The notes: generated from the letters alone by a model not told the origin. Shown: positions 16,240 through 38,029, counted from the stretch's first letter. The stretch is DNA of 64,000 bases from an uncultured bacterium (GCA_964410945.1 CAYPJE010000003.1:3398-67397), one strand, 5' to 3'. Program-made: numbers and translations.

Positions 16240-17040
16240 ATGTTGATAAATTCAAAATATAAATATTTTGAGGAGTATATACTTGAAATCCAATCCAAGG
16301 GTAGATATTCATTAACCTTAGATGAATTGAAAACTAGATTTGATATTTCTGAAAAAGCTATTCTTCAAAAAATATTCAGGTTAAAAAACAAAAACCAACT
16401 GGCACAGGTGCGCCAGGAATTCTATGTCATTATTCCTCCTCAATACTCCATTCGAGGTATGGTGCCTCCAACACTCTTTATTGATGATATGATGGAATTT
16501 CTTAATAAAGAGTACTATGTAGGATTATTATCTGCTGCCGCTTTACACGGTGCCGGACATCAGCAGCCTATGGAATTTCAGGTTATAACCAAAAAGCCTG
16601 CTTTGCGTAGCATCAGAAATCAAAAACTTGTTATAAGTTTTTTTATAAAAGGTAAATGGGAACAGATCCAAATCAATGAAAAAAAAACTGAGACAGGATA
16701 CATTAAAGTTTCATCCCCTGCACTCACAGCTTTCGACCTTGTTTATTATAACAAAAAGATTGGAGGATTAAACCGAATTATTCCAATACTAGAAGACTTA
16801 GCCGAAAGCATCAATTCATATGAAATCAGAAAAGCCACCAAATTTCAAAAAATACCAACCATTCAACGTCTAGGCTATCTATTTGAAGTAATTGGTGCCA
16901 AGAAACTTGCCGATTCTCTTTTTAAAACAATAAATCAACAATCACTTAAAAAAACCCCACTCTCGTTGCTCTATAAGGAAAACAAAGGATGGGTTAATGA
17001 TAAATGGAATGTAATTGTAAATACAGAGCTTGATTTTTAA
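16240..17040 (+). CDS. type IV toxin-antitoxin system AbiEi-family antitoxin
   Basis: 266 aa. N-terminal wHTH-like region (LTLDELKTRFDISEKAILQKIFRLKNKNQL). Position and 1-nt overlap (TAATG) with an AbiEii gene. AT-rich. Confidence 0.7.
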   Translation: MLINSKYKYFEEYILEIQSKGRYSLTLDELKTRFDISEKAILQKIFRLKNKNQLAQVRQEFYVIIPPQYSIRGMVPPTLFIDDMMEFLNKEYYVGLLSAAALHGAGHQQPMEFQVITKKPALRSIRNQKLVISFFIKGKWEQIQINEKKTETGYIKVSSPALTAFDLVYYNKKIGGLNRIIPILEDLAESINSYEIRKATKFQKIPTIQRLGYLFEVIGAKKLADSLFKTINQQSLKKTPLSLLYKENKGWVNDKWNVIVNTELDF

Positions 17041-17828
17041 TGATACCAAGACGGTATATTGAAGAATGGAAAGAATTTGCTCCCTGGCCGGAAGATGCAC
17101 AGGTAGAGCAAGATCTCATTATTGAGAAAGCCGTACTGCAATTATTCAACGACCCATTCCTTCAACAGCGCCTTGCTTTCCGAGGTGGTACGGCTCTTCA
17201 TAAAATATATCTAAAACCTCAAGTGAGGTATTCGGAAGACATTGATCTTGTGCAAGTAAACGCAGAACATATCGGGGAAACAATAAATGCTGTACGCAAT
17301 CAATTAAATTTCCTTGGAAAACCGATAGTTAAACAAAAAGCAAACAACAATAGCCTGGTTTATCGATTTAGATCAGAAATAGCCCCAATTATAAATATGC
17401 GTCTCAAAATTGAAATCAATTGCCGTGAACATTTCACTGTTCTTGGGTACAAAAAGATAGATTATGGTATAAAGAATACATGGGGCACGGGGGAATGTAC
17501 ACTGTTATCCTATGAAGCAGAGGAAATGCTTGGAACCAAATTGAGAGCATTGTACCAAAGAAAGAAAGGACGCGATCTTTTCGACTTGTATCATGCAATT
17601 ACAAATTTGGATCTGGACACAGATATTCTTATAAAGTGCTACAAAAAGTACATTGCTTTTTCGGTAAATAAACCCCCAACAAAAGCACAATTTCTATTAA
17701 ACATAGAAGATAAACTGCAAAACCCTGACTTTACAGGAGACATTTATGCTTTATTAAGGCCTGGTGTGGAATATGATCAAAATAAAGCGTATGAGATTAT
17801 CAAAACCGAACTGATTGAAAAGATATAA
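17040..17828 (+). CDS. nucleotidyltransferase AbiEii/AbiGii-family toxin
   Basis: Hallmark FRGGTALHKIY ... RYSEDIDL motifs of the AbiEii (formerly DUF1814) family. Confidence 0.85.
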   Translation: MIPRRYIEEWKEFAPWPEDAQVEQDLIIEKAVLQLFNDPFLQQRLAFRGGTALHKIYLKPQVRYSEDIDLVQVNAEHIGETINAVRNQLNFLGKPIVKQKANNNSLVYRFRSEIAPIINMRLKIEINCREHFTVLGYKKIDYGIKNTWGTGECTLLSYEAEEMLGTKLRALYQRKKGRDLFDLYHAITNLDLDTDILIKCYKKYIAFSVNKPPTKAQFLLNIEDKLQNPDFTGDIYALLRPGVEYDQNKAYEIIKTELIEKI

Positions 17829-30225: not shown

Positions 30226-30849
30226 TTAACTAATCAAATTCAGGCCTTCTGTTGCTGATTCATCACCGGGATTATATAATTTCACTTTTTGAAACAATAC
30301 TTTTGCCCTGATATAATTACCCTGAAAATAATTTGTCCATGCCAACATTAGCAGTCCATCATATCCGAACGGATAGAGATCGACAACTTTCTTAAATAGC
30401 GAATAGGCGCTGTTATAATCTTTTCGATCATAGTAAATCACTCCAAGCCGGTACATGACGGTTGTATTCTTCGGATTTATTTCCAAAATCTTTAGATATA
30501 AATCAATGACCTCATCCCATTCACCAAGTGCTGATTTGGGAAGAATTAAACCTAGCCTTCCTTCTTCCGAATATGGTAACAGTCTGTGTGCAATGGAATA
30601 ATACTTTACGGATTCCTTAAATAAACCAGCATTATAATTAAGCCATCCTAACCGCAAGTTGATTTCATAGGAATCCTCGTCATAGACTTCTTTAAGAACT
30701 CCTATTGAACCAGAATAATCCCCTTCTTTTTCCATTCGATAGCTATTTGAGAATGCTGATTCCAATGCTTCCTGGCTGTGTTGCGCATTGGCTGTTACGA
30801 CCACAAATAAGACTATAAAAATACTTATTATTCTTTTCAAAAATTCCAT
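30226..30849 (-). CDS. secreted tetratricopeptide-repeat protein
   Basis: Signal peptide IFIVLFVVVTANA. Repeated TPR-like units (YNSAYSLFKKVVDLYP, GNYIRAKVLFQKVKLYNP). Confidence 0.7.
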   Translation of the reverse strand: MEFLKRIISIFIVLFVVVTANAQHSQEALESAFSNSYRMEKEGDYSGSIGVLKEVYDEDSYEINLRLGWLNYNAGLFKESVKYYSIAHRLLPYSEEGRLGLILPKSALGEWDEVIDLYLKILEINPKNTTVMYRLGVIYYDRKDYNSAYSLFKKVVDLYPFGYDGLLMLAWTNYFQGNYIRAKVLFQKVKLYNPGDESATEGLNLIS

Positions 30850-32174
30850 GATAAACCAACGGTTAATGTCTGTTTAATGTAATCATAATTTATTGAATTA
30901 ATTTCTGTGTCATCATCGGTATAGGTCCGGTAGGTTTCTACAATATCCTGGTTAATATAACGAAATACTAAGTACATCTGTTCTCCCAGGGGGAAATACA
31001 GGCTCCCGATGAATTTCTGATTTGATTTCCCGGGAAAATTTGAAACCACAAAGCCGGCCGGTTCAATGAAATTTTCCATTTTTCCATTTAGGTACTGACT
31101 GTAAACATGGAGCTTTCCAAGTTGCAGCCCTCCTGATATACCTAAAGTATTTATCGCCAGATCACCGGTGGAAGTTGTCTTGAAGTAGATTCGAGGTGTA
31201 AAATATAGATTCGTATTAGAGAGGGGGTAATAAGTCAGCCAAGTAGATACTTGTATAAAATCAGTATCATATATATTAGCATAATTAACTTCCATGCCTG
31301 GCGACAAATTTCTCCAATGAAACCAAATCGATCCGGATAGCACACAATCGGTATAACTGTCGGTTATTTCACTATAATAGATGGTTGAATCCGATAAATA
31401 GATTCCATACAGATAGGTAATGTCACCTAGGATGAAATTAGCTGAAGAAGCAGCATTCAACCGTTTGCCCAGACTTAATTGCGGATTTACATAGTATTGG
31501 AACTGCGTGGTTTGAGAAGAATAAGTCTTTTGATCTCCGCGGTTAATCTGCTGCTGGCGATTGACACCAATCAATGTCAGATTATGATTAACGGAAAGGT
31601 TTGGCGATACACGATGACTCAGATCACAAGATTCGAAATGGTAATCTTTGAGAATGAAAGCCTGGCCATATTCATTTTCATTCAGCACAAGCTCATCGCC
31701 AATATTGCTGGCCGCCAGATTATCAAAGTCCGGATTCAGGCCATACCCGCCTTCGACAGCCAGCCTGGTCAACTCAGGAATATCGTAGCCAATCTTTTCC
31801 TGGAAACCAAGTGAAAAATCAACTGCCACCTCGGATGCTTTACCCGGTCTCCCCCCCCACAATAAACTGTAATACAGATACTCCTGTAGCCATTCAAAAG
31901 ACTTGTCCCTTTCCCAGGCTTTCAGGAGATATTCCGCCGCAATCCGATACTTCTTCAGCTTATAATAGGCAATACCGGTCCTGGCCTGCAAATAGAAAAA
32001 GTCGATTCCCTGACTTTGGGCCGCAATTGACAGTTGAATCAGTTCATCCCATTTCTTCTGGAAAAACAGTTCATATGATTTTTTGTCAACTTCGACTGTG
32101 CTTAACCTCGTCTGTGACGAAACCATTCCGACCACCATCAGCAGGAAAGCTATTAACCACCATCGTTTGTACAC
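30837..32174 (-). CDS. secreted protein with TPR-like N-terminus and putative outer-membrane beta-barrel C-terminus
   Basis: Signal peptide. N-terminal helical repeats (YRIAAEYLLKAWERD). C-terminal 300 aa rich in alternating aromatic/polar strands, ending LTVGLSWNF (aromatic terminal residue, OMP-like). Confidence 0.5.
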   Translation of the reverse strand: MYKRWWLIAFLLMVVGMVSSQTRLSTVEVDKKSYELFFQKKWDELIQLSIAAQSQGIDFFYLQARTGIAYYKLKKYRIAAEYLLKAWERDKSFEWLQEYLYYSLLWGGRPGKASEVAVDFSLGFQEKIGYDIPELTRLAVEGGYGLNPDFDNLAASNIGDELVLNENEYGQAFILKDYHFESCDLSHRVSPNLSVNHNLTLIGVNRQQQINRGDQKTYSSQTTQFQYYVNPQLSLGKRLNAASSANFILGDITYLYGIYLSDSTIYYSEITDSYTDCVLSGSIWFHWRNLSPGMEVNYANIYDTDFIQVSTWLTYYPLSNTNLYFTPRIYFKTTSTGDLAINTLGISGGLQLGKLHVYSQYLNGKMENFIEPAGFVVSNFPGKSNQKFIGSLYFPLGEQMYLVFRYINQDIVETYRTYTDDDTEINSINYDYIKQTLTVGLSWNF

Positions 32175-34378
32175 TTTATTCCGATCCTTGTATTATCAAA
32201 TTTCACTGAAATAGTGAAAACACCATCCGGACTGATATCTATCTTGATTTTATAGTCTTTTACCGTTCTCCCCAGGATTTTCTTAAGAATGATTACATCC
32301 ATTTCAATATTGTCCGAGGCTAGGATATCACCTGCTTCCCTGAATATCAGTCTATACTCTGCTCTTAGAAACAAAATCAGTGGCGCAATAAAGTCTTGCA
32401 AAATCTTAATCATACCCCCGAACATCATATTCACCGGAATATGATCCTTGATTTGACTATTGGGCAGATAGCCCAAGGGAATCTTAAACAACGACACAAA
32501 AAACCAGTAAAGAATTGTATATTTGTCCCCAATGAAATTGGTAAAATAATGTAGGTCGTTATTATTATATAGATAACCCACACCACTTTCCGATTCTGAG
32601 CGAATATAGGTATTGTTATAGGGATCGGTTTCAACGGTCCACAGATAATCACCGGAAAGTTTATTCCATCGATGTTTATCGGAATTCACTTCCGCCTGAA
32701 CTCGCAACCGTTGCCCGGGAATAAAATGTAAAACCCGGGTAATGATTTCATTCTTTACCGGGTTGGCCACTGCTTCACCTTTTTGGGGATTCCGGAAGGC
32801 CTTTAATTGAAACCCATGCTTTGCTTTAAGTAAGAACTGTCCGAAGGGATAGTCAATTGTGGGCGATCCAATATATGGTGTGGCCTGAAATTGAAAATGG
32901 AGGTGGGGATAGGGCGACCGGCCAGAATTTCCACAGCGTCCCAGAAGCTGGCCCTGTTGCACCTTATCACCAACCTCGACCACCAGGGATTTGCATTTTA
33001 AGTGACAGAGCTTTGAATACAGACTATCGGAATGTTTGATGATAATTGTGTTCCCCCAGTTATTCCTTGTGTTTATATCACCAATCGTATTATCATGAAT
33101 ATTACTTACAGTTTCAACGATGGTACCGTCAGCGGGTGCGACAACGGCTTTACCATAACAGAAATAATCCTCGGCGAAATTTCCATGGTCCCTATATTCT
33201 TTCCCGTTACTATCGGAAATAATAAAATCCCAGGCATGGCGCCATTCCCCTTGATGGGTATATTCGCCTTCATGAGCCTGGCTGATAGTCCATTCGCCAA
33301 AGAAAGGGAGCGAAAACGAAATCGGGTAGGCAGCTGGAAAACGTTTGGTATTACCGGCATAAAGATAAAAATTCTTCTCGGGCTTGCCTACCTGCACTGG
33401 TGTTTCAACCAAATAGTTGGATTTGTTGTCCCGTAGTTTCAAGGCATATAAAAACATTAAGACAACCATATTAAAAGGCAGGGAATACGGAGAAAGTTTA
33501 AAGAACAGAAGCAACGTCTGTGAACCAATGGTTACCAGGACCACAATGGGTAGCAGTAACGCTATCCACCCGAAACTTACACGATTAGGTACCAGGAAAT
33601 ATCCACCCAAGGCAATGGCTGTTAATATGTAATTAAAACCAATAAACGTATAGCTCAGCGAATTAAACTCGATGCCAACGATAATGTAGAACAAATAGGC
33701 AATTGAATATCCAAATATGGAAAGTACAAACGTGATTCGGGAATAAATAAGTAATCCGATGGCAATTATTATCCCGGCCAGTAACTGAAACTGGAAAAAA
33801 ATGGCACCCAGCGAATAAAAGTAAATACCAAAAAAAGATGACCCGATTGATTTTTCTAGCCATTCATAGACATTAACAAAAAGAGGTCCGCCCAGGGCAT
33901 ATAGTTCGTTATAAAAGTAAATACCGCGCTCGCTGATGTGGAGTAGTGTTAAACTGCTCCCGGATAAGACCGCAATCCAGATGGTTAATAAAAAAGGAAC
34001 GCTAAGAAAAGGTAAGCCGTATTTGCCTAGCAAACCCTGAAAAACAATAGTAAGAAAGAAGCAGATCACAGCTGTAATGGCAATATACAGGTAGAGTGGC
34101 AGGGAAGGCTGGTACAATAGACCAATCCCCAATCCGGTTAACAGTGCATTGAAACCATAGACTCCTGATGTGATCAAATATTTATTATACCCCAGCAACC
34201 AGGCCAATAAATTGGCTATCAACACTGAAAGTAAGCCACCTATCCCAGCCCCATAATCGAAAAAACTTATTCCCATTAATAAAAGGGCCAGCAATTTCGA
34301 AGTGGAAAAAAATACCTGCGAATAACTGTTCAGGATAGAGTAAATGAAATTGTTTATCTTACTGTGGCAGTTTCTCAT
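32153..34378 (-). CDS. urea-transporter-like membrane domain fused to M23 metallopeptidase domain
   Basis: N-terminal about 330 aa is polytopic, with SYSQVFF and GVYGFNALLTGLGIG motifs resembling the UT family. The C-terminal half has the M23 motifs HAWDF (HxxxD) and SPYPHLHFQ (HxH). Confidence 0.7.
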   Translation of the reverse strand: MRNCHSKINNFIYSILNSYSQVFFSTSKLLALLLMGISFFDYGAGIGGLLSVLIANLLAWLLGYNKYLITSGVYGFNALLTGLGIGLLYQPSLPLYLYIAITAVICFFLTIVFQGLLGKYGLPFLSVPFLLTIWIAVLSGSSLTLLHISERGIYFYNELYALGGPLFVNVYEWLEKSIGSSFFGIYFYSLGAIFFQFQLLAGIIIAIGLLIYSRITFVLSIFGYSIAYLFYIIVGIEFNSLSYTFIGFNYILTAIALGGYFLVPNRVSFGWIALLLPIVVLVTIGSQTLLLFFKLSPYSLPFNMVVLMFLYALKLRDNKSNYLVETPVQVGKPEKNFYLYAGNTKRFPAAYPISFSLPFFGEWTISQAHEGEYTHQGEWRHAWDFIISDSNGKEYRDHGNFAEDYFCYGKAVVAPADGTIVETVSNIHDNTIGDINTRNNWGNTIIIKHSDSLYSKLCHLKCKSLVVEVGDKVQQGQLLGRCGNSGRSPYPHLHFQFQATPYIGSPTIDYPFGQFLLKAKHGFQLKAFRNPQKGEAVANPVKNEIITRVLHFIPGQRLRVQAEVNSDKHRWNKLSGDYLWTVETDPYNNTYIRSESESGVGYLYNNNDLHYFTNFIGDKYTILYWFFVSLFKIPLGYLPNSQIKDHIPVNMMFGGMIKILQDFIAPLILFLRAEYRLIFREAGDILASDNIEMDVIILKKILGRTVKDYKIKIDISPDGVFTISVKFDNTRIGIKCTNDGG

Positions 34379-34387
34379 ACCGGCGGG

Positions 34388-35734
34388 TTATTTTTTGGGA
34401 TTGTATTCACCTTCCGTTATCGATTCCAATTTTTCCCTATGCCTGATAATATGAGTTTCCCCACTCAAGTCTATTAGTACCACATTGGGCCGGAAAGTAA
34501 TAAACTGCATCCATTGGGTTACATTATATGCTCCGACCCGTTCAATGACCAATTGATCGCCGACATTGACCAATGGGAAATTAATTGAATCACGAATCAC
34601 ATCAATATTCATGCATAAAGGACCATACACAGTTGTTTCCTCCTCATATTTAGAAACATTGGTCGTAGGACAGACCGACATGTTGTACCAGAACGAGGTA
34701 AAGAGAATATTAACGCCAGCGTCAATTACCATTAAACGTTTTCCAGTACTCGAACGTTTATTGGCCAGTACTGTGGTCAGTATATACCCGGCGTCATCGA
34801 TTAATGCCCGTCCGGTTTCCAGAAACAGGACCGGCAATTTTTCATGAGGTATTTCGGAAGCAATTATCCCATTGGTAATTGCTTCTGCATATGCATCAAA
34901 TGAAGGGCAGGTTTCAGAACCGGGCATGTAGGCACCTTTTAAGGTGCTTTTGGACGCAAAACCACCACCCAGATCCAGGTACTTTATCCAATGATCAAAT
35001 TTCCGGTAGGTTGCCATAATCAGGTGTGATAGCTTTTGTGCTGCTATCGCATAGGCAGACGTTGACAGAATATAGGTTCCGATATGCGTATGCAGGCCGA
35101 TCAGGTCAAGTTCATCAGCTAGCATTATACGGTTGATAGCATTCCAAGCTTCACCATTCTCATAATTGAAACCAAACCGATCCCACTTAGGAGAAATGCC
35201 TGTGTCCATATTGATACGGATGGCAACCCGCGCTTTTTTTCCACAATTTCGGGCAGTATCAATTAATAAATATAATTCATCAAAATGGTCAATGTGAACA
35301 CAGGCATTGTTGTTTAGCGCCATAACTATATCTTCGCCGGTCTTATTAGGCCCGTTAAAAAGGATTTTCGAACCGCACACACCCAGTCTCAGCGCTTTTT
35401 CAAATTCATATCTGGAAACAACTTCAGCCCAGGAACCCTCTTCATGATAGATACTGCAAACGGCATCCAGGTAATTTGTTTTATATGACCAGGCAAACTG
35501 GACCTTGGGATATCTGGTTTCAAAGGCCCTTTTGGCATCATTAAATGTTTCCCGGATAGTTTTCTCGGAAAATACAAAGACTGGAGATCCATATTTTTCG
35601 ATTAGGCTTGAGACAGGTATGCCATCAACATCAGCAATTATCTTTTGACGCGCCCCAAACCCAACCTTGTCCGGTACACCAGCGGTTATTTTACTGATGA
35701 CAGGTTTTTCATATACTAATTTCTCCATGGTCAT
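34388..35734 (-). CDS. PLP-dependent decarboxylase, Orn/DAP/Arg decarboxylase family (fold type III)
   Basis: FAWSYKTNY (PLP lysine region), HIGT, LDLGGGF, ETGRALI and a C-terminal beta-barrel region GAY, as in LysA/SpeA-type enzymes. Confidence 0.8.
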   Translation of the reverse strand: MTMEKLVYEKPVISKITAGVPDKVGFGARQKIIADVDGIPVSSLIEKYGSPVFVFSEKTIRETFNDAKRAFETRYPKVQFAWSYKTNYLDAVCSIYHEEGSWAEVVSRYEFEKALRLGVCGSKILFNGPNKTGEDIVMALNNNACVHIDHFDELYLLIDTARNCGKKARVAIRINMDTGISPKWDRFGFNYENGEAWNAINRIMLADELDLIGLHTHIGTYILSTSAYAIAAQKLSHLIMATYRKFDHWIKYLDLGGGFASKSTLKGAYMPGSETCPSFDAYAEAITNGIIASEIPHEKLPVLFLETGRALIDDAGYILTTVLANKRSSTGKRLMVIDAGVNILFTSFWYNMSVCPTTNVSKYEEETTVYGPLCMNIDVIRDSINFPLVNVGDQLVIERVGAYNVTQWMQFITFRPNVVLIDLSGETHIIRHREKLESITEGEYNPKK

Positions 35735-36795
35735 ATTTCCTTATTCATCGAAATAGCAGCAAATTTTTCAACATCAACAATCATGTCATAGGAATAGCGT
35801 ATAAACATTTTTCCTTTCTTGTATTCATGCATCGGATTAACCTTCCAGCCTAATGCCAGTTTTACCAATGCCTCCGGAATATTCTGTCCCGCTCCAACAG
35901 CCAGATACACCCAGGCCGGAATCCGCGGATTTATTTCAATCAGGTAATAATCATCTGATTGTGTTTTGATTAATTCCAGTTCCACCCCTCCCTTCCATCT
36001 TGTCTGTCTTATGATTGATTTTGTCAACGCTATCATTTTTTCATCAGACAAAGTAATCCCGCTCCAGGCCTTACCCAGCTCGGTAATATATTGCTTTCGC
36101 ATAGGTACGGCCGCAATGGTGTTCCCATCACCATCACCAAGGGCAACCACATTCACTTCCGTCCCTTCAATAAAATCCTGCACAATGACCGGTAATCCCC
36201 ATTTACCGGAAATTTTATCAAAGGCCTGCTTGGCCTGTTCCTCATTTTTTACCTTGCAGGCATCATAGAATTTTCCTTTAAGCATCACCGGATAATCAAA
36301 GATTTCTTCTATGTCCGAAATCTTGTCTTTGCTGGCCAATTCCATAATCTCTGGAGTCATGATATTATATTTTTTCCCAAAATCAGATAGTTTATCCTTC
36401 TGTCTTTCCTCAAATTGATTTAAGGTTGGCAAAAACGTATTTATCCCCTGATTTGCCAATCGTTTTTCATTAATGATAAATGAAAATAGTTCGGCGTCAA
36501 AATTGGGTATAAGCACATCTATGTTTTCCTGTTGGTGGATATATTCGATACGTTCCACCAATTCATCTGAACCTGAACTCGGGTATGGTATCTTAAAAAT
36601 CCTGTCACATAAGTTTACCATGTAAATCCCCGGCTCCATGTTCTCGTAAACCAGGCCAATTATCCTGGTCTCAAAATCACACGATTCCTTGATACCACGA
36701 ATTACCGGAATACCGGGGCCGGGATTATCCGTATTGTTCAACCCGGTTACCGCTATTGTTATCTTCTGCTTATTATCTGAATTCAAGTTGCCCAT
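35731..36795 (-). CDS. ATP-grasp family ligase
   Basis: FDYPVMLKGKF, VIVQDFIEGTEVNV and YLIEINPRIPA motifs characteristic of the ATP-grasp fold. ATGA overlap with the decarboxylase gene. Confidence 0.8.
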   Translation of the reverse strand: MGNLNSDNKQKITIAVTGLNNTDNPGPGIPVIRGIKESCDFETRIIGLVYENMEPGIYMVNLCDRIFKIPYPSSGSDELVERIEYIHQQENIDVLIPNFDAELFSFIINEKRLANQGINTFLPTLNQFEERQKDKLSDFGKKYNIMTPEIMELASKDKISDIEEIFDYPVMLKGKFYDACKVKNEEQAKQAFDKISGKWGLPVIVQDFIEGTEVNVVALGDGDGNTIAAVPMRKQYITELGKAWSGITLSDEKMIALTKSIIRQTRWKGGVELELIKTQSDDYYLIEINPRIPAWVYLAVGAGQNIPEALVKLALGWKVNPMHEYKKGKMFIRYSYDMIVDVEKFAAISMNKEI

Positions 36796-37036
36796 CCTGT
36801 ACGATTATCTGGTAATACTTCAACAATGTCACAAATTCGTAGAAATCTTTTTCAAAGATCAGGTCGTCAATATTATACCGGGATAGGAAATCCTGTTTGA
36901 TTTCGTCCGGTTTTTGACCCAGATTGATCATTTTCACCAATTCCAGGGCCACCGGATTCAAATTAAAGGAATCCCCAGTCTTTGAATTGAACAGGAAACC
37001 GTTTTCGCTGATATTCACTTCGTTTGATATTTTCAT
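36773..37036 (-). CDS. PqqD-family (RiPP recognition element-like) small protein
   Basis: 87 aa. The pattern ...FLFNSKTGDSFNLNPVALELVKMINLGQKPDEIKQDFLSRYNID...DFYEFVTLL resembles PqqD-like peptide chaperones. Overlaps the ATP-grasp gene by 23 nt. Confidence 0.6.
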   Translation of the reverse strand: MKISNEVNISENGFLFNSKTGDSFNLNPVALELVKMINLGQKPDEIKQDFLSRYNIDDLIFEKDFYEFVTLLKYYQIIVQDGQLEFR

Positions 37037-37274
37037 CTCCTTGATAATCCTACATTATTTATTCACATTATTCGCATTTATAATCTTGAGGAATTCGGTT
37101 CCTTCTATGAAGTTTGACAAACAAATCGGTAAAATATTCCAATTTATCATTCTTGCGTTCTCATACAATAAATCGTTTGTCAAAACCAGTTGCCAGATTC
37201 AATTAATCCATTGATTCATTTCAGAAATATGGAGTTGTGCTTAAGCTGGACATCATCTGGAACGAATATACCCA

Positions 37275-38029
37275 CTACATGCAGTTTCCATTATTGGTAA
37301 TATCATTTTCATATTCAATCACAAAGGCATAAAAAGTGGCCTTTTTCCCTCCCCGCAGATCACCGAAGCGGACTGGAAAATCGGCCCAAGTGGAAACGCG
37401 GGCAGATATTTCACCATAGCACATAACATCCTGATTTCCGTCGGTTGCATTGTTGGGCTGGTCATTGTTTCTGGGATCGGCATTGTAAACACCATCATCC
37501 AAATTTTTACACCAGTTGGTATAGTCCATACTGTTTCCGCTCAGCCAACGCCAACCTTCGGCCGGTGTGGATTCCCGGGAATTATCATACTCCTGAAAAC
37601 CGCCTATCGGAGGGCCATTGGTGACACCAGTCTCTGGCCAGACATACCAGTAGTCAGCATGATCAACCAGTGAAAATACAAATTCATTCTCATCCTGTGT
37701 TTCAGGGCAAACCAGATAACCACCGCTGATTTGAGCCAGAGAAGCCGCACATAGCCATTCCACACCCCCATTTGGAATTTCGATCAACTCATAATAGTGC
37801 GTGTCTCCATTTTCATTGGTAAAGCAGACCGCCTTTTTCTGATGTAGCTGCCGATTTCGTCCCAACCTCGGTATACATTCTCAAAACTTGATTTGGGATA
37901 AAAATCAGTAATATCCAGAGATGAACTTACTTGCGTAATAAGATCCTTTTTTACTTCCCTGTAGAAATAATCACCAGGCTCAGTGCAGAAAACATAAGCA
38001 GTATTCTTTTCATCACTCAATTCCTTCAA
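37275..38029 (-). pseudogene. C-type-lectin-like domain gene, apparently frameshifted and lacking an ATG start
   Basis: ORFs 37784..38029 and 37275..37865 both start at TTG and overlap in different frames. One extra A in the A5 run (plus-strand T5 at 37834..37838) would fuse them. CTLD motifs WRWLSGNSMDYTNW and DVMCYGE...WADFPV. Confidence 0.45.

Follow-up and report, generated by a model that had tools for sequence, protein, structure and literature searches.

A widespread six-gene cassette of Bacteroidota joins a PqqD-like protein, an ATP-grasp ligase and a FigC-like decarboxylase to a urea-transporter–M23 fusion and TPR/β-barrel proteins

A 64,000-nucleotide (nt) stretch of DNA from an uncultured bacterium, hereafter the window, carries a cassette of six genes on its minus strand at 30226-37036 (positions count from the start of the stretch). 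In gene order, the cassette encodes a small PqqD-like protein, an ATP-grasp ligase, a pyridoxal-phosphate (PLP)-dependent decarboxylase, a fusion of a urea transporter (UT) domain with an M23 metallopeptidase, a protein with a TPR-like domain and a β-barrel, and a second TPR protein. The six genes are one co-inherited unit, and they make up a real, widespread and unnamed system. Its domain families are known, and their combination and the fusion architecture have no characterised counterpart. The reading that we prefer, to which we assign a probability of about 0.35, is that ligation followed by decarboxylation yields a small N-acyl-diamine-like metabolite, which would be exported over both membranes, with metals often controlling the system.

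A co-inherited unit of six genes

The initial annotation of this DNA had described six minus-strand open reading frames (ORFs), and each was recovered at exactly the same coordinates. The junctions were confirmed as well. The PqqD and ATP-grasp genes overlap by 23 nt, the ATP-grasp and decarboxylase genes share a 4-nt ATGA that can be read in the sequence, a gap of 9 nt separates the decarboxylase gene from that of the UT–M23 fusion (UT::M23), and overlaps of 22 nt and then 13 nt lead into the barrel and TPR genes. The ATP-grasp gene has an ambiguous start, with 354 residues counted from the ATG at 36795 and 351 from the TTG at 36786. Because its orthologues are 348 residues long, both this start and the size of the 23-nt overlap are uncertain. 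All domain calls (PqqD, ATP-grasp, decarboxylase, UT, M23, and TPR) were upheld by profile hidden Markov model searches.

Relatives of UT::M23 fall into 697 clusters at 50% identity with E ≤ 1e-30, many of them full-length and 32-47% identical, and a scan of one genome per species gave at least 593 confirmed matches. Locus comparisons were made with the best 80 of these at least 593 matches. Nearly all of the 80 loci belong to Bacteroidota, spread over several orders, and one to Ignavibacteria. The five larger genes are present in 41 of the 43 loci with both flanks, and they are collinear on one strand in all 41 complete loci. Among loci with enough flank, the ATP-grasp and decarboxylase genes were found in 48/50 and PqqD, searched by tblastn, in 45/50; where enough downstream flank was available, the barrel gene was found in 62/64 and the TPR gene in 64/64. 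The co-occurrence elsewhere that the initial annotation had proposed as a check is thus borne out, with fixed order and strand. Flanking genes are unrelated between genomes. Sequence identity is highest for the enzymes (55-79%) and lowest for the barrel (21-54%). The exceptional loci without the enzymes are secondary rearrangements: in L024 an integrase has inserted upstream, and the apparent 'ATP-grasp' of L066 is an AraC regulator.

None of the cassette proteins reached an NCBIfam equivalog cut-off. Public annotations name them only as 'urea transporter', 'peptidase M23', 'ATP-grasp domain-containing protein' or 'hypothetical protein', and no description of this gene combination was found in the literature searched. 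The cassette is therefore uncharacterised, as had been supposed from the window; it occurs in at least 593 species-level genomes of Bacteroidota and relatives, a good many from sediments, digesters, and marine habitats, yet no gene of it has a functional name. The observation and the claim of novelty in the initial annotation both stand, whereas its mechanistic analogies (peptide or carrier templating, BtrJ/LysX-type ligation, and polymer export) mostly fail, for the reasons given below with each protein.

The enzymes and the PqqD-like protein

The closest solved relative of the decarboxylase is N-citrylornithine decarboxylase, FigC (PDB 7kh2; 5e-59, 203 bits). Diaminopimelate decarboxylase (DAPDC) matches at 5e-41 and 144 bits at most, and BtrK at 5e-23 and 84 bits, so the fold is that of BtrK, to which it had been likened earlier, but FigC is much the nearer relative. 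In 66 orthologues the catalytic residues K85, H215/H217, DLGGG, E306/R309, and C374 are invariant. Equally invariant, and as in FigC, are C374-M375 and T346, the latter at the position of DAPDC R343. FigC takes a substrate acylated on its side-chain amine; its catalytic Cys is followed by Met rather than by an acidic residue, and Thr stands where R343 of DAPDC holds the distal carboxylate (PMC7857480). I377 and Q407 stand where FigC has H357 and R387, the two residues with which it contacts citrate, and the cassette enzymes have invariant pocket motifs of their own (FTSFWY, CMNID, and NxTQWMQF). Because this pocket is invariant across the 66 orthologues and without the citrate contacts of FigC, its residues imply that the enzyme acts on one specific compound, which would be neither diaminopimelate (DAP), ornithine, lysine, nor citrylornithine. 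The NCBIfam models agree with this placement: the FslC model NF041039 scores 225.6 bits against a cut-off of 500, and the LysA model TIGR01048 scores 221 bits against 297.9, with the DAPDC 'CES' changed to CMN and R343 to T346. A true DAP decarboxylase or ornithine decarboxylase was rejected on these scores and specificity residues.

The ATP-grasp ligase resembles carbamoyl-phosphate synthetase (CPS). Its best NCBIfam match is PRK12767, 'CPS-like protein' (8e-29). A profile built from 23 sequences matched the CPS large subunit in the PDB at 2.6e-10 and, at 1.1e-8, 2pn1, a functionally uncharacterised stand-alone CPS-like protein; weaker matches were biotin carboxylases and PurD, with urea amidolyase also among them. 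The motif E287-x-N289-P-R291 is invariant. There was no match to LysX/RimK at E below 0.1 in the PDB profile search or in NCBIfam, and the PDB profile search gave no match to BtrJ or to graspetide ligases. By these profile matches, the enzyme is a member of the small-substrate CPS-like branch. An ATP-grasp enzyme of the LysX/BtrJ type or of the graspetide type was rejected, since the profile finds CPS-like, biotin-carboxylase, and PurD relatives only, and the LysX and BtrJ analogies drawn from the window give way to a CPS-like one.

The 87-residue PqqD-like protein matches its Pfam family at 9e-6 (26.4 bits against a cut-off of 23.4). Its best NCBIfam matches are the PqqD chaperones of lasso-peptide and HPr-rel-A systems, all below cut-off. 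The core is conserved in 55 orthologues (S10, G13-F14, G21-[DE]-S23, N27, Y54, F61-E62, and D-F68), whereas the C-terminal tail differs among them in both length and sequence. A LysW-like carrier role for PqqD was rejected, as the tail is without conservation and offers no fixed attachment residue. A Pfam profile search found no PP-binding (acyl carrier protein, ACP) domain in any of the six proteins.

The hunt for a precursor peptide was done twice, because a scaffold peptide can stay overlooked for years even in a well-studied cluster (PMC13622209). The narrower, earlier search covered the upstream region only. The wider one took ORFs of 8-89 residues with any start codon in all intergenic space, starting 1.2 kb upstream of the cassette and ending 0.9 kb downstream. 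It collected 1,498 small ORFs in about 80 loci, of which PqqD alone proved conserved. A clustered precursor was rejected, since both searches returned only PqqD and its out-of-frame shadows. With no conserved precursor ORF near the cassette, a variable PqqD tail, and no ACP, templating on a peptide or carrier, as first proposed for this DNA, gains at most partial support.

The channel fusion and the outer-membrane proteins

The N-terminal domain of UT::M23 has the urea-transporter fold (PF03253, 184 bits) and aligns with dvUT at 2e-20. It scores 122 with the Yut equivalog TIGR03441, for which the cut-off is 275. The urea recognition motif consists of Q-V, F/Y, and T in both halves of the transporter (PMC11589576). 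In the cassette protein, Q21-V22 of the Pa helix and the pore phenylalanines F76 and F248 are kept; S126 and S299 replace both pore threonines, and A192 replaces the Pb Q/E. These largely retained residues fit a narrow channel for small solutes and not an exporter of peptides or polymers.

No hydrophobic segment lies between the tenth transmembrane helix (TM10) and the M23 domain, and both the N-terminus and the stretch after TM10 are rich in lysine and arginine. In the urea transporters that have been studied (UT-A/UT-B), the termini are cytoplasmic. From the 10-TM UT fold, the lack of any helix after TM10, the K/R-rich flanks, and the cytoplasmic termini of these transporters, the M23 and C-terminal domains are probably cytoplasmic. 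The product-trimming or releasing role that had been suggested for M23 changes accordingly in place: after a 10-TM UT fold, any trimming would be cytoplasmic.

In its second half, the M23 domain has H459 and H492-L-H494, which align with the active enzymes Pgp3, ShyA, lysostaphin, and LytM. Across 40 diverse members of the family, H375, D384, H459, H492, and H494 do not vary. The invariant pair of the first motif is H375-x8-D384, compared with the canonical HxxxD zinc motif. The M23 call and its HxH motif from the initial annotation were confirmed, but the His of the 'HAWD' it had pointed to (H381) is unconserved, the invariant pair being H375 and D384. A weak NCBIfam match of the M23 domain (32879-33301; E 0.0016) is to PRK06148, a model of 1015 positions named 'hypothetical protein'. 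We take this model to represent large cytoplasmic fusion enzymes of amine metabolism with an internal M23 domain, which, if so, would provide a precedent for a cytoplasmic M23.

The fusion's C-terminal domain is its only confidently modelled part (pLDDT 80-90). Foldseek relates it, weakly, to ligand-binding barrels of the calycin/CRABP and LolA-like kinds (E about 5e-3, TM-scores of 0.4-0.48 to the target). The linker between UT and M23 (residues 314-365) is conserved, with the consensus SPE-NLY...RF.

The 445-residue protein encoded next has no Pfam or NCBIfam match. AlphaFold2, run with 35 homologues, predicts a signal peptide, TPR-like helices at residues 26-127, and a 14-strand β-barrel at residues 134-444 (pLDDT 88.9), so that the TPR-like N-terminus and β-rich C-terminus read from the translation take shape as a TPR domain and a barrel. 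Foldseek matched it to outer-membrane barrels only. The best TM-scores, 0.43-0.45, are low and belong to small-molecule barrels of the FadL type; BcsC is also listed. Together, the cytoplasmic enzymes, the inner-membrane protein, the periplasmic TPR protein, and the TPR/outer-membrane barrel support the trans-envelope layout that had been proposed. Polysaccharide export was rejected, as the barrel has 14 strands instead of 16-18 and there is no polysaccharide synthase or glycosyltransferase in the cassette or its conserved neighbours. These same points, with the largely kept UT pore residues, speak against the analogy to polymer exporters in the initial annotation.

Proposed pathway, alternatives and genomic context

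Accessory genes were identified by clustering all flanking ORFs across the compared loci. In 26 loci, about a third of lineages, an AraC-family regulator of ~200 residues lies directly upstream of PqqD. Its N-terminal domain carries the motif (I/V)KNMxCxCC and is related to heavy-metal-associated (HMA) domains: its profile matches the metal-binding domains of copper ATPases (1e-27) and CopZ (2.5e-7), and Pfam HMA is found in 10 of 15 members. Because this regulator (HMA-AraC) stands directly upstream of the operon, expression in these lineages is probably responsive to metal, and probably to copper, as judged from the domain matches. The product may serve to bind metal or to meet metal stress. 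A DUF2202 lipoprotein gene lies near the cassette in 12 loci. Descriptions of HMA-AraC regulators were not found in the literature searched.

Among known systems, the enzymatic logic is by analogy most like that of FigA/FigC and SbnH, with BtrJ/BtrK and other pathways that pair ATP-grasp and PLP-decarboxylase enzymes more distant. The rhizoferrin pathway of Francisella (FigA/FigC, or FslA/FslC) and SbnH of staphyloferrin B likewise use a carboxylate–amine ligase and then an alanine-racemase-fold PLP decarboxylase acting on a side-chain-acylated diamino acid (PMC7857480), and the Met after the catalytic Cys and the Thr at R343 are common to FigC and the cassette enzyme. However, the Fig and Sbn ligases are synthetases of the NRPS-independent siderophore type (IucA/IucC), whereas that of the cassette is an ATP-grasp enzyme. 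The cassette has no major facilitator superfamily exporter or siderophore receptor, and PqqD, UT::M23, and TPR/barrel proteins are in turn missing from the Fig/Sbn pathways. Butirosin BtrI/BtrJ/BtrK also combine an ATP-grasp enzyme with a DAPDC-family decarboxylase on a tethered amino acid, and the LysW/LysX systems combine an ATP-grasp enzyme with release by a metallopeptidase (LysK); in contrast to both, the cassette has neither an ACP nor a LysW-like carrier, the tail of its PqqD is variable, and its ATP-grasp enzyme is unlike LysX, RimK, or BtrJ. Pathways for peptides ribosomally synthesized and modified post-translationally (RiPPs) that use a RiPP recognition element (RRE) or PqqD (lasso-peptide B1, PqqD/PqqE, and mycofactocin MftB) resemble it in having a stand-alone PqqD of ~87 residues, here first in the operon, with an ATP-dependent amide ligase and a peptidase domain, but the cassette lacks a clustered precursor, a class-defining RiPP enzyme, and a graspetide-type ATP-grasp. 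BcsC, PgaA, and AlgK/AlgE offer a periplasmic TPR module joined to a barrel, plus a separate TPR protein; the barrel of the cassette is small (445 residues in all, 14 strands) and comes without synthase, glycosyltransferase, or cyclic di-GMP module. With the urea transporters dvUT, Yut, and SLC14, the fusion shares the 10-TM fold, the Pa Q-V, and both pore phenylalanines. It differs from them in its Ala for the Pb Q/E, its Ser for the pore Thr, and an M23 and β-domain extension of 430 residues that would be cytoplasmic. No urease genes lie near the cassette.

On our preferred reading, the CPS-like ATP-grasp enzyme would acylate a diamino acid of the ornithine or lysine type on its side-chain amine, using a small carboxylate. 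The FigC-like decarboxylase would then strip the α-carboxylate to leave an N-acyl-diamine, as the specificity residues common with FigC suggest. The cytoplasmic M23/β-barrel module of the fusion may bind this product or trim a protecting group from it, and the UT-type pore would let it pass. From there, the periplasmic TPR protein and the TPR/14-strand barrel could carry it over the periplasm and the outer membrane. PqqD might bind a peptide and so dock the enzymes to a partner, as an adaptor and not as a reader of RiPP leaders, which is the least certain step; the conserved UT–M23 linker is, speculatively, one candidate ligand. This export pathway is supported by the co-inheritance of the genes, the FigC-like residues, the CPS-like ligase, the precedents for pairing a ligase with an alanine-racemase-fold decarboxylase (FigA/FigC, SbnH, and BtrJ/BtrK), the UT pore, the TPR barrel, the lack of a precursor ORF near the cassette, and the proximity of HMA-AraC and DUF2202 genes.

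Several points weigh against it. Every step is inferred, including the substrate, the sequence of reactions, which way transport runs, and what M23 and PqqD do. The citrate contacts of FigC are exchanged, and a cytoplasmic M23 peptidase is without an obvious job in such a pathway. AlphaFold2 modelled the UT and M23 parts of the fusion poorly (pLDDT 56), so their topology rests on homology and charge bias. UT channels are bidirectional, which makes export and import indistinguishable. The window and most Prolixibacteraceae loci are without the HMA-AraC regulator. To our knowledge, PqqD/RRE proteins have no established role in non-ribosomal small-molecule pathways, and the strict conservation of PqqD here is unexplained.

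A fuller version of this reading is more doubtful. In it, the cassette would be a new trans-envelope machine, widespread in Bacteroidota, whose UT channel, fused to a cytoplasmic M23 domain and a ligand-binding barrel, takes the product of the PqqD-assisted ATP-grasp and FigC-like enzymes and passes it to the TPR/14-strand pore, with copper-type HMA-AraC control in many lineages. A metallophore-like or metal-stress metabolite would then be reached by a new route, and the PqqD/RRE fold would have a new, precursor-independent use.

A peptide scaffold of the RiPP, pearlin, or LysW kind, encoded elsewhere, is in our estimate unlikely. PqqD would present the peptide or small protein, the ATP-grasp enzyme would attach an amino acid to it, the decarboxylase would modify that residue, and M23 would cleave it beside the channel. 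In favour of such a pathway, PqqD matches its family above cut-off, its nearest NCBIfam models are RiPP chaperones, its core is strongly conserved, and the pairing of an ATP-grasp enzyme with a metallopeptidase follows the attach-and-release logic of LysX and LysK. A decarboxylase that needs a side-chain-attached substrate would also fit a tethered residue, and overlooked scaffold peptides have a precedent (PMC13622209). Nevertheless, in about 80 loci the surroundings of the cassette contain no conserved small ORF besides PqqD, the tail of PqqD is unconserved and an ACP is missing, the ligase falls outside the RimK/LysX and graspetide branches, and the UT pore, judged by its residues, appears too narrow for peptides. 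If scaffolding were nevertheless at work, peptide-templated small-molecule biosynthesis would extend to ATP-grasp chemistry.

Two further explanations seem improbable to us. M23 enzymes are classically peptidoglycan endopeptidases, as are all the best M23 matches here, and the cassette could thus remodel the envelope: a periplasmic M23 would cut peptidoglycan, the enzymes would supply an amine for a wall or surface glycan, and the TPR/barrel proteins would form a surface-modification machine with two accessory products, a protein bearing a type IX secretion system (T9SS) sorting tail (27 loci) and an Acyl_transf_3/HGSNAT acyltransferase (9 loci). PBP1a is encoded 4 kb from the cassette in the window. 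However, this neighbour is unconserved, the accessory genes are absent from the window and from most loci, and M23 follows a 10-TM fold with no further hydrophobic segment, which, given the cytoplasmic UT termini and the K/R-rich stretches that agree with them, would place it on the wrong side of the membrane for this role. Alternatively, and with as little likelihood, the barrel and UT might import a small amide- or urea-like compound that the cytoplasmic M23 hydrolyses and the ATP-grasp enzyme and decarboxylase process further. Passive, bidirectional UT channels with retained pore residues would permit uptake, and the CPS-like clade includes enzymes that handle urea and bicarbonate, such as urea amidolyase and biotin carboxylases, which are among the weak PDB matches. 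Against this, ATP-dependent ligation followed by decarboxylation is anabolic logic, the cassette contains no urease or amidase, and Bacteroidota usually import through SusC/D or TonB-dependent systems, none of which is conserved here.

Three oddities set the cassette beyond known systems: a PqqD without a precursor, a UT domain fused to an apparently cytoplasmic M23, and a FigC-like decarboxylase with an invariant pocket that fits none of the known substrates. If the export pathway is true, a major environmental phylum would make a new small metabolite, possibly linked to metals, and send it along a new route through the Gram-negative envelope. Cultured hosts exist (Maribellus comscasis, Draconibacterium sediminis, and Mariniphaga anaerophila), so that the question is directly testable.

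The remaining accessory genes vary between loci (Table 1). The gene of the T9SS-sorted, secreted protein (~264 residues) lies just 3' of the TPR gene or between the ATP-grasp and decarboxylase genes, and its N-terminal domain has no detectable relatives. The membrane acyltransferase gene adjoins the cassette and in two loci stands immediately upstream of UT::M23. In four loci of one clade, a gene of the IF-2B family (sugar-phosphate isomerase-like) lies between the decarboxylase and UT::M23 genes. Its product resembles ribose-1,5-bisphosphate and methylthioribose-1-phosphate isomerases, with all matches below cut-off, and may hint at a link to ribose phosphate or to polyamine/methionine salvage. 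The T9SS-sorted, acyltransferase, IF-2B-family, and DUF2202 genes are all absent from the window. An ORF of ~146 residues in the same interval between decarboxylase and UT::M23 was seen in L008 (7538-8721, two copies) and L017 (1889-2328); it looks like a small transposase.

Table 1. Features of the cassette in the window, and accessory genes at the compared loci (locus:positions)
Feature	Position	Strand	Family or support
PqqD-family (RRE-type) small protein, 87 aa, first gene of the operon	36773..37036	minus	PF05402
ATP-grasp ligase, assigned to the CPS-like branch	35731..36795	minus	PF15632, PF02655
Alanine-racemase-fold PLP decarboxylase, FigC/FslC-like, 448 aa	34388..35734	minus	PF02784, PF00278
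UT::M23 fusion protein, 741 aa	ORF 32153-34378	minus	PF03253 + PF01551
UT-fold polytopic membrane domain, aa 14-313 of the 741-aa protein	33440..34339	minus	PF03253, 4e-54
M23 metallopeptidase domain, about aa 360-500 of the 741-aa protein	32879..33301	minus	PF01551, 1e-16
C-terminal β-rich domain, aa 540-741 of the 741-aa protein	32156..32761	minus	no Pfam match
Secreted 445-aa protein, TPR-like N-terminal domain and predicted 14-strand outer-membrane β-barrel	30837..32174	minus	AlphaFold2, Foldseek
TPR protein with signal peptide, 207 aa (periplasmic)	30226..30849	minus	TPR_2, 1e-17, and other TPR families
AT-rich leader/promoter region, 238 nt, 5' of the PqqD gene	37037..37274	minus	
HMA-AraC regulator	L036:5580-6155, L043:4501-5094, L022:5446-6051, 23 other loci		
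T9SS-sorted protein	L001:14163-14954, L036:13189-13983, L076:1738-2517, 24 other loci		
Acyl_transf_3/HGSNAT acyltransferase	L066:66-1103, L027:2345-3388, L019:5558-6613, 6 other loci		
IF-2B-family protein	L037:8015-8932, L044:8053-9000, L056:7339-8295, L058:8013-8921		

The leader region belongs to no Rfam family. A riboswitch or leader RNA was rejected, as a search that admitted E up to 1 turned up two matches only, both at chance level, and no conserved small ORF was found when one was looked for there. A scan of the leader for sigma-70 promoters and terminators gave counts near the shuffled expectation, Bacteroidota promoters being outside the coverage of the scan. A role in anti-phage defence was rejected on zero PADLOC matches.

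The cassette of the window has a GC content of 0.406, compared with 0.489 in its flanks. This difference of -0.083 is the largest among 35 genomes. Low GC as a general trait of the cassette was rejected, because the mean difference between cassette and flanks is 0 in the other 34 genomes. In the window, the cassette sits between housekeeping genes and adjoins a frameshifted gene. The low GC confined to the window, the housekeeping surroundings, and the adjacent frameshifted gene together suggest that the cassette was recently acquired in this genome, by horizontal transfer. The gene in question, directly upstream of the operon (37275-38016, minus strand), is split across three reading frames: the signal peptide is at 37951-38016, the middle part at 37784-38029, and the C-terminal part of 196 residues matches a C-type-lectin-like family weakly (Lectin_C, E 0.12, below cut-off). 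Lying where the low-GC cassette borders its flank, this gene is probably a pseudogene. GC is also low (0.34) in a second island, at 16240-17828 on the plus strand of the window, which encodes a pair of AbiEi antitoxin and AbiEii nucleotidyltransferase toxin (PF09407, 4e-31; PF08843, 2e-30).

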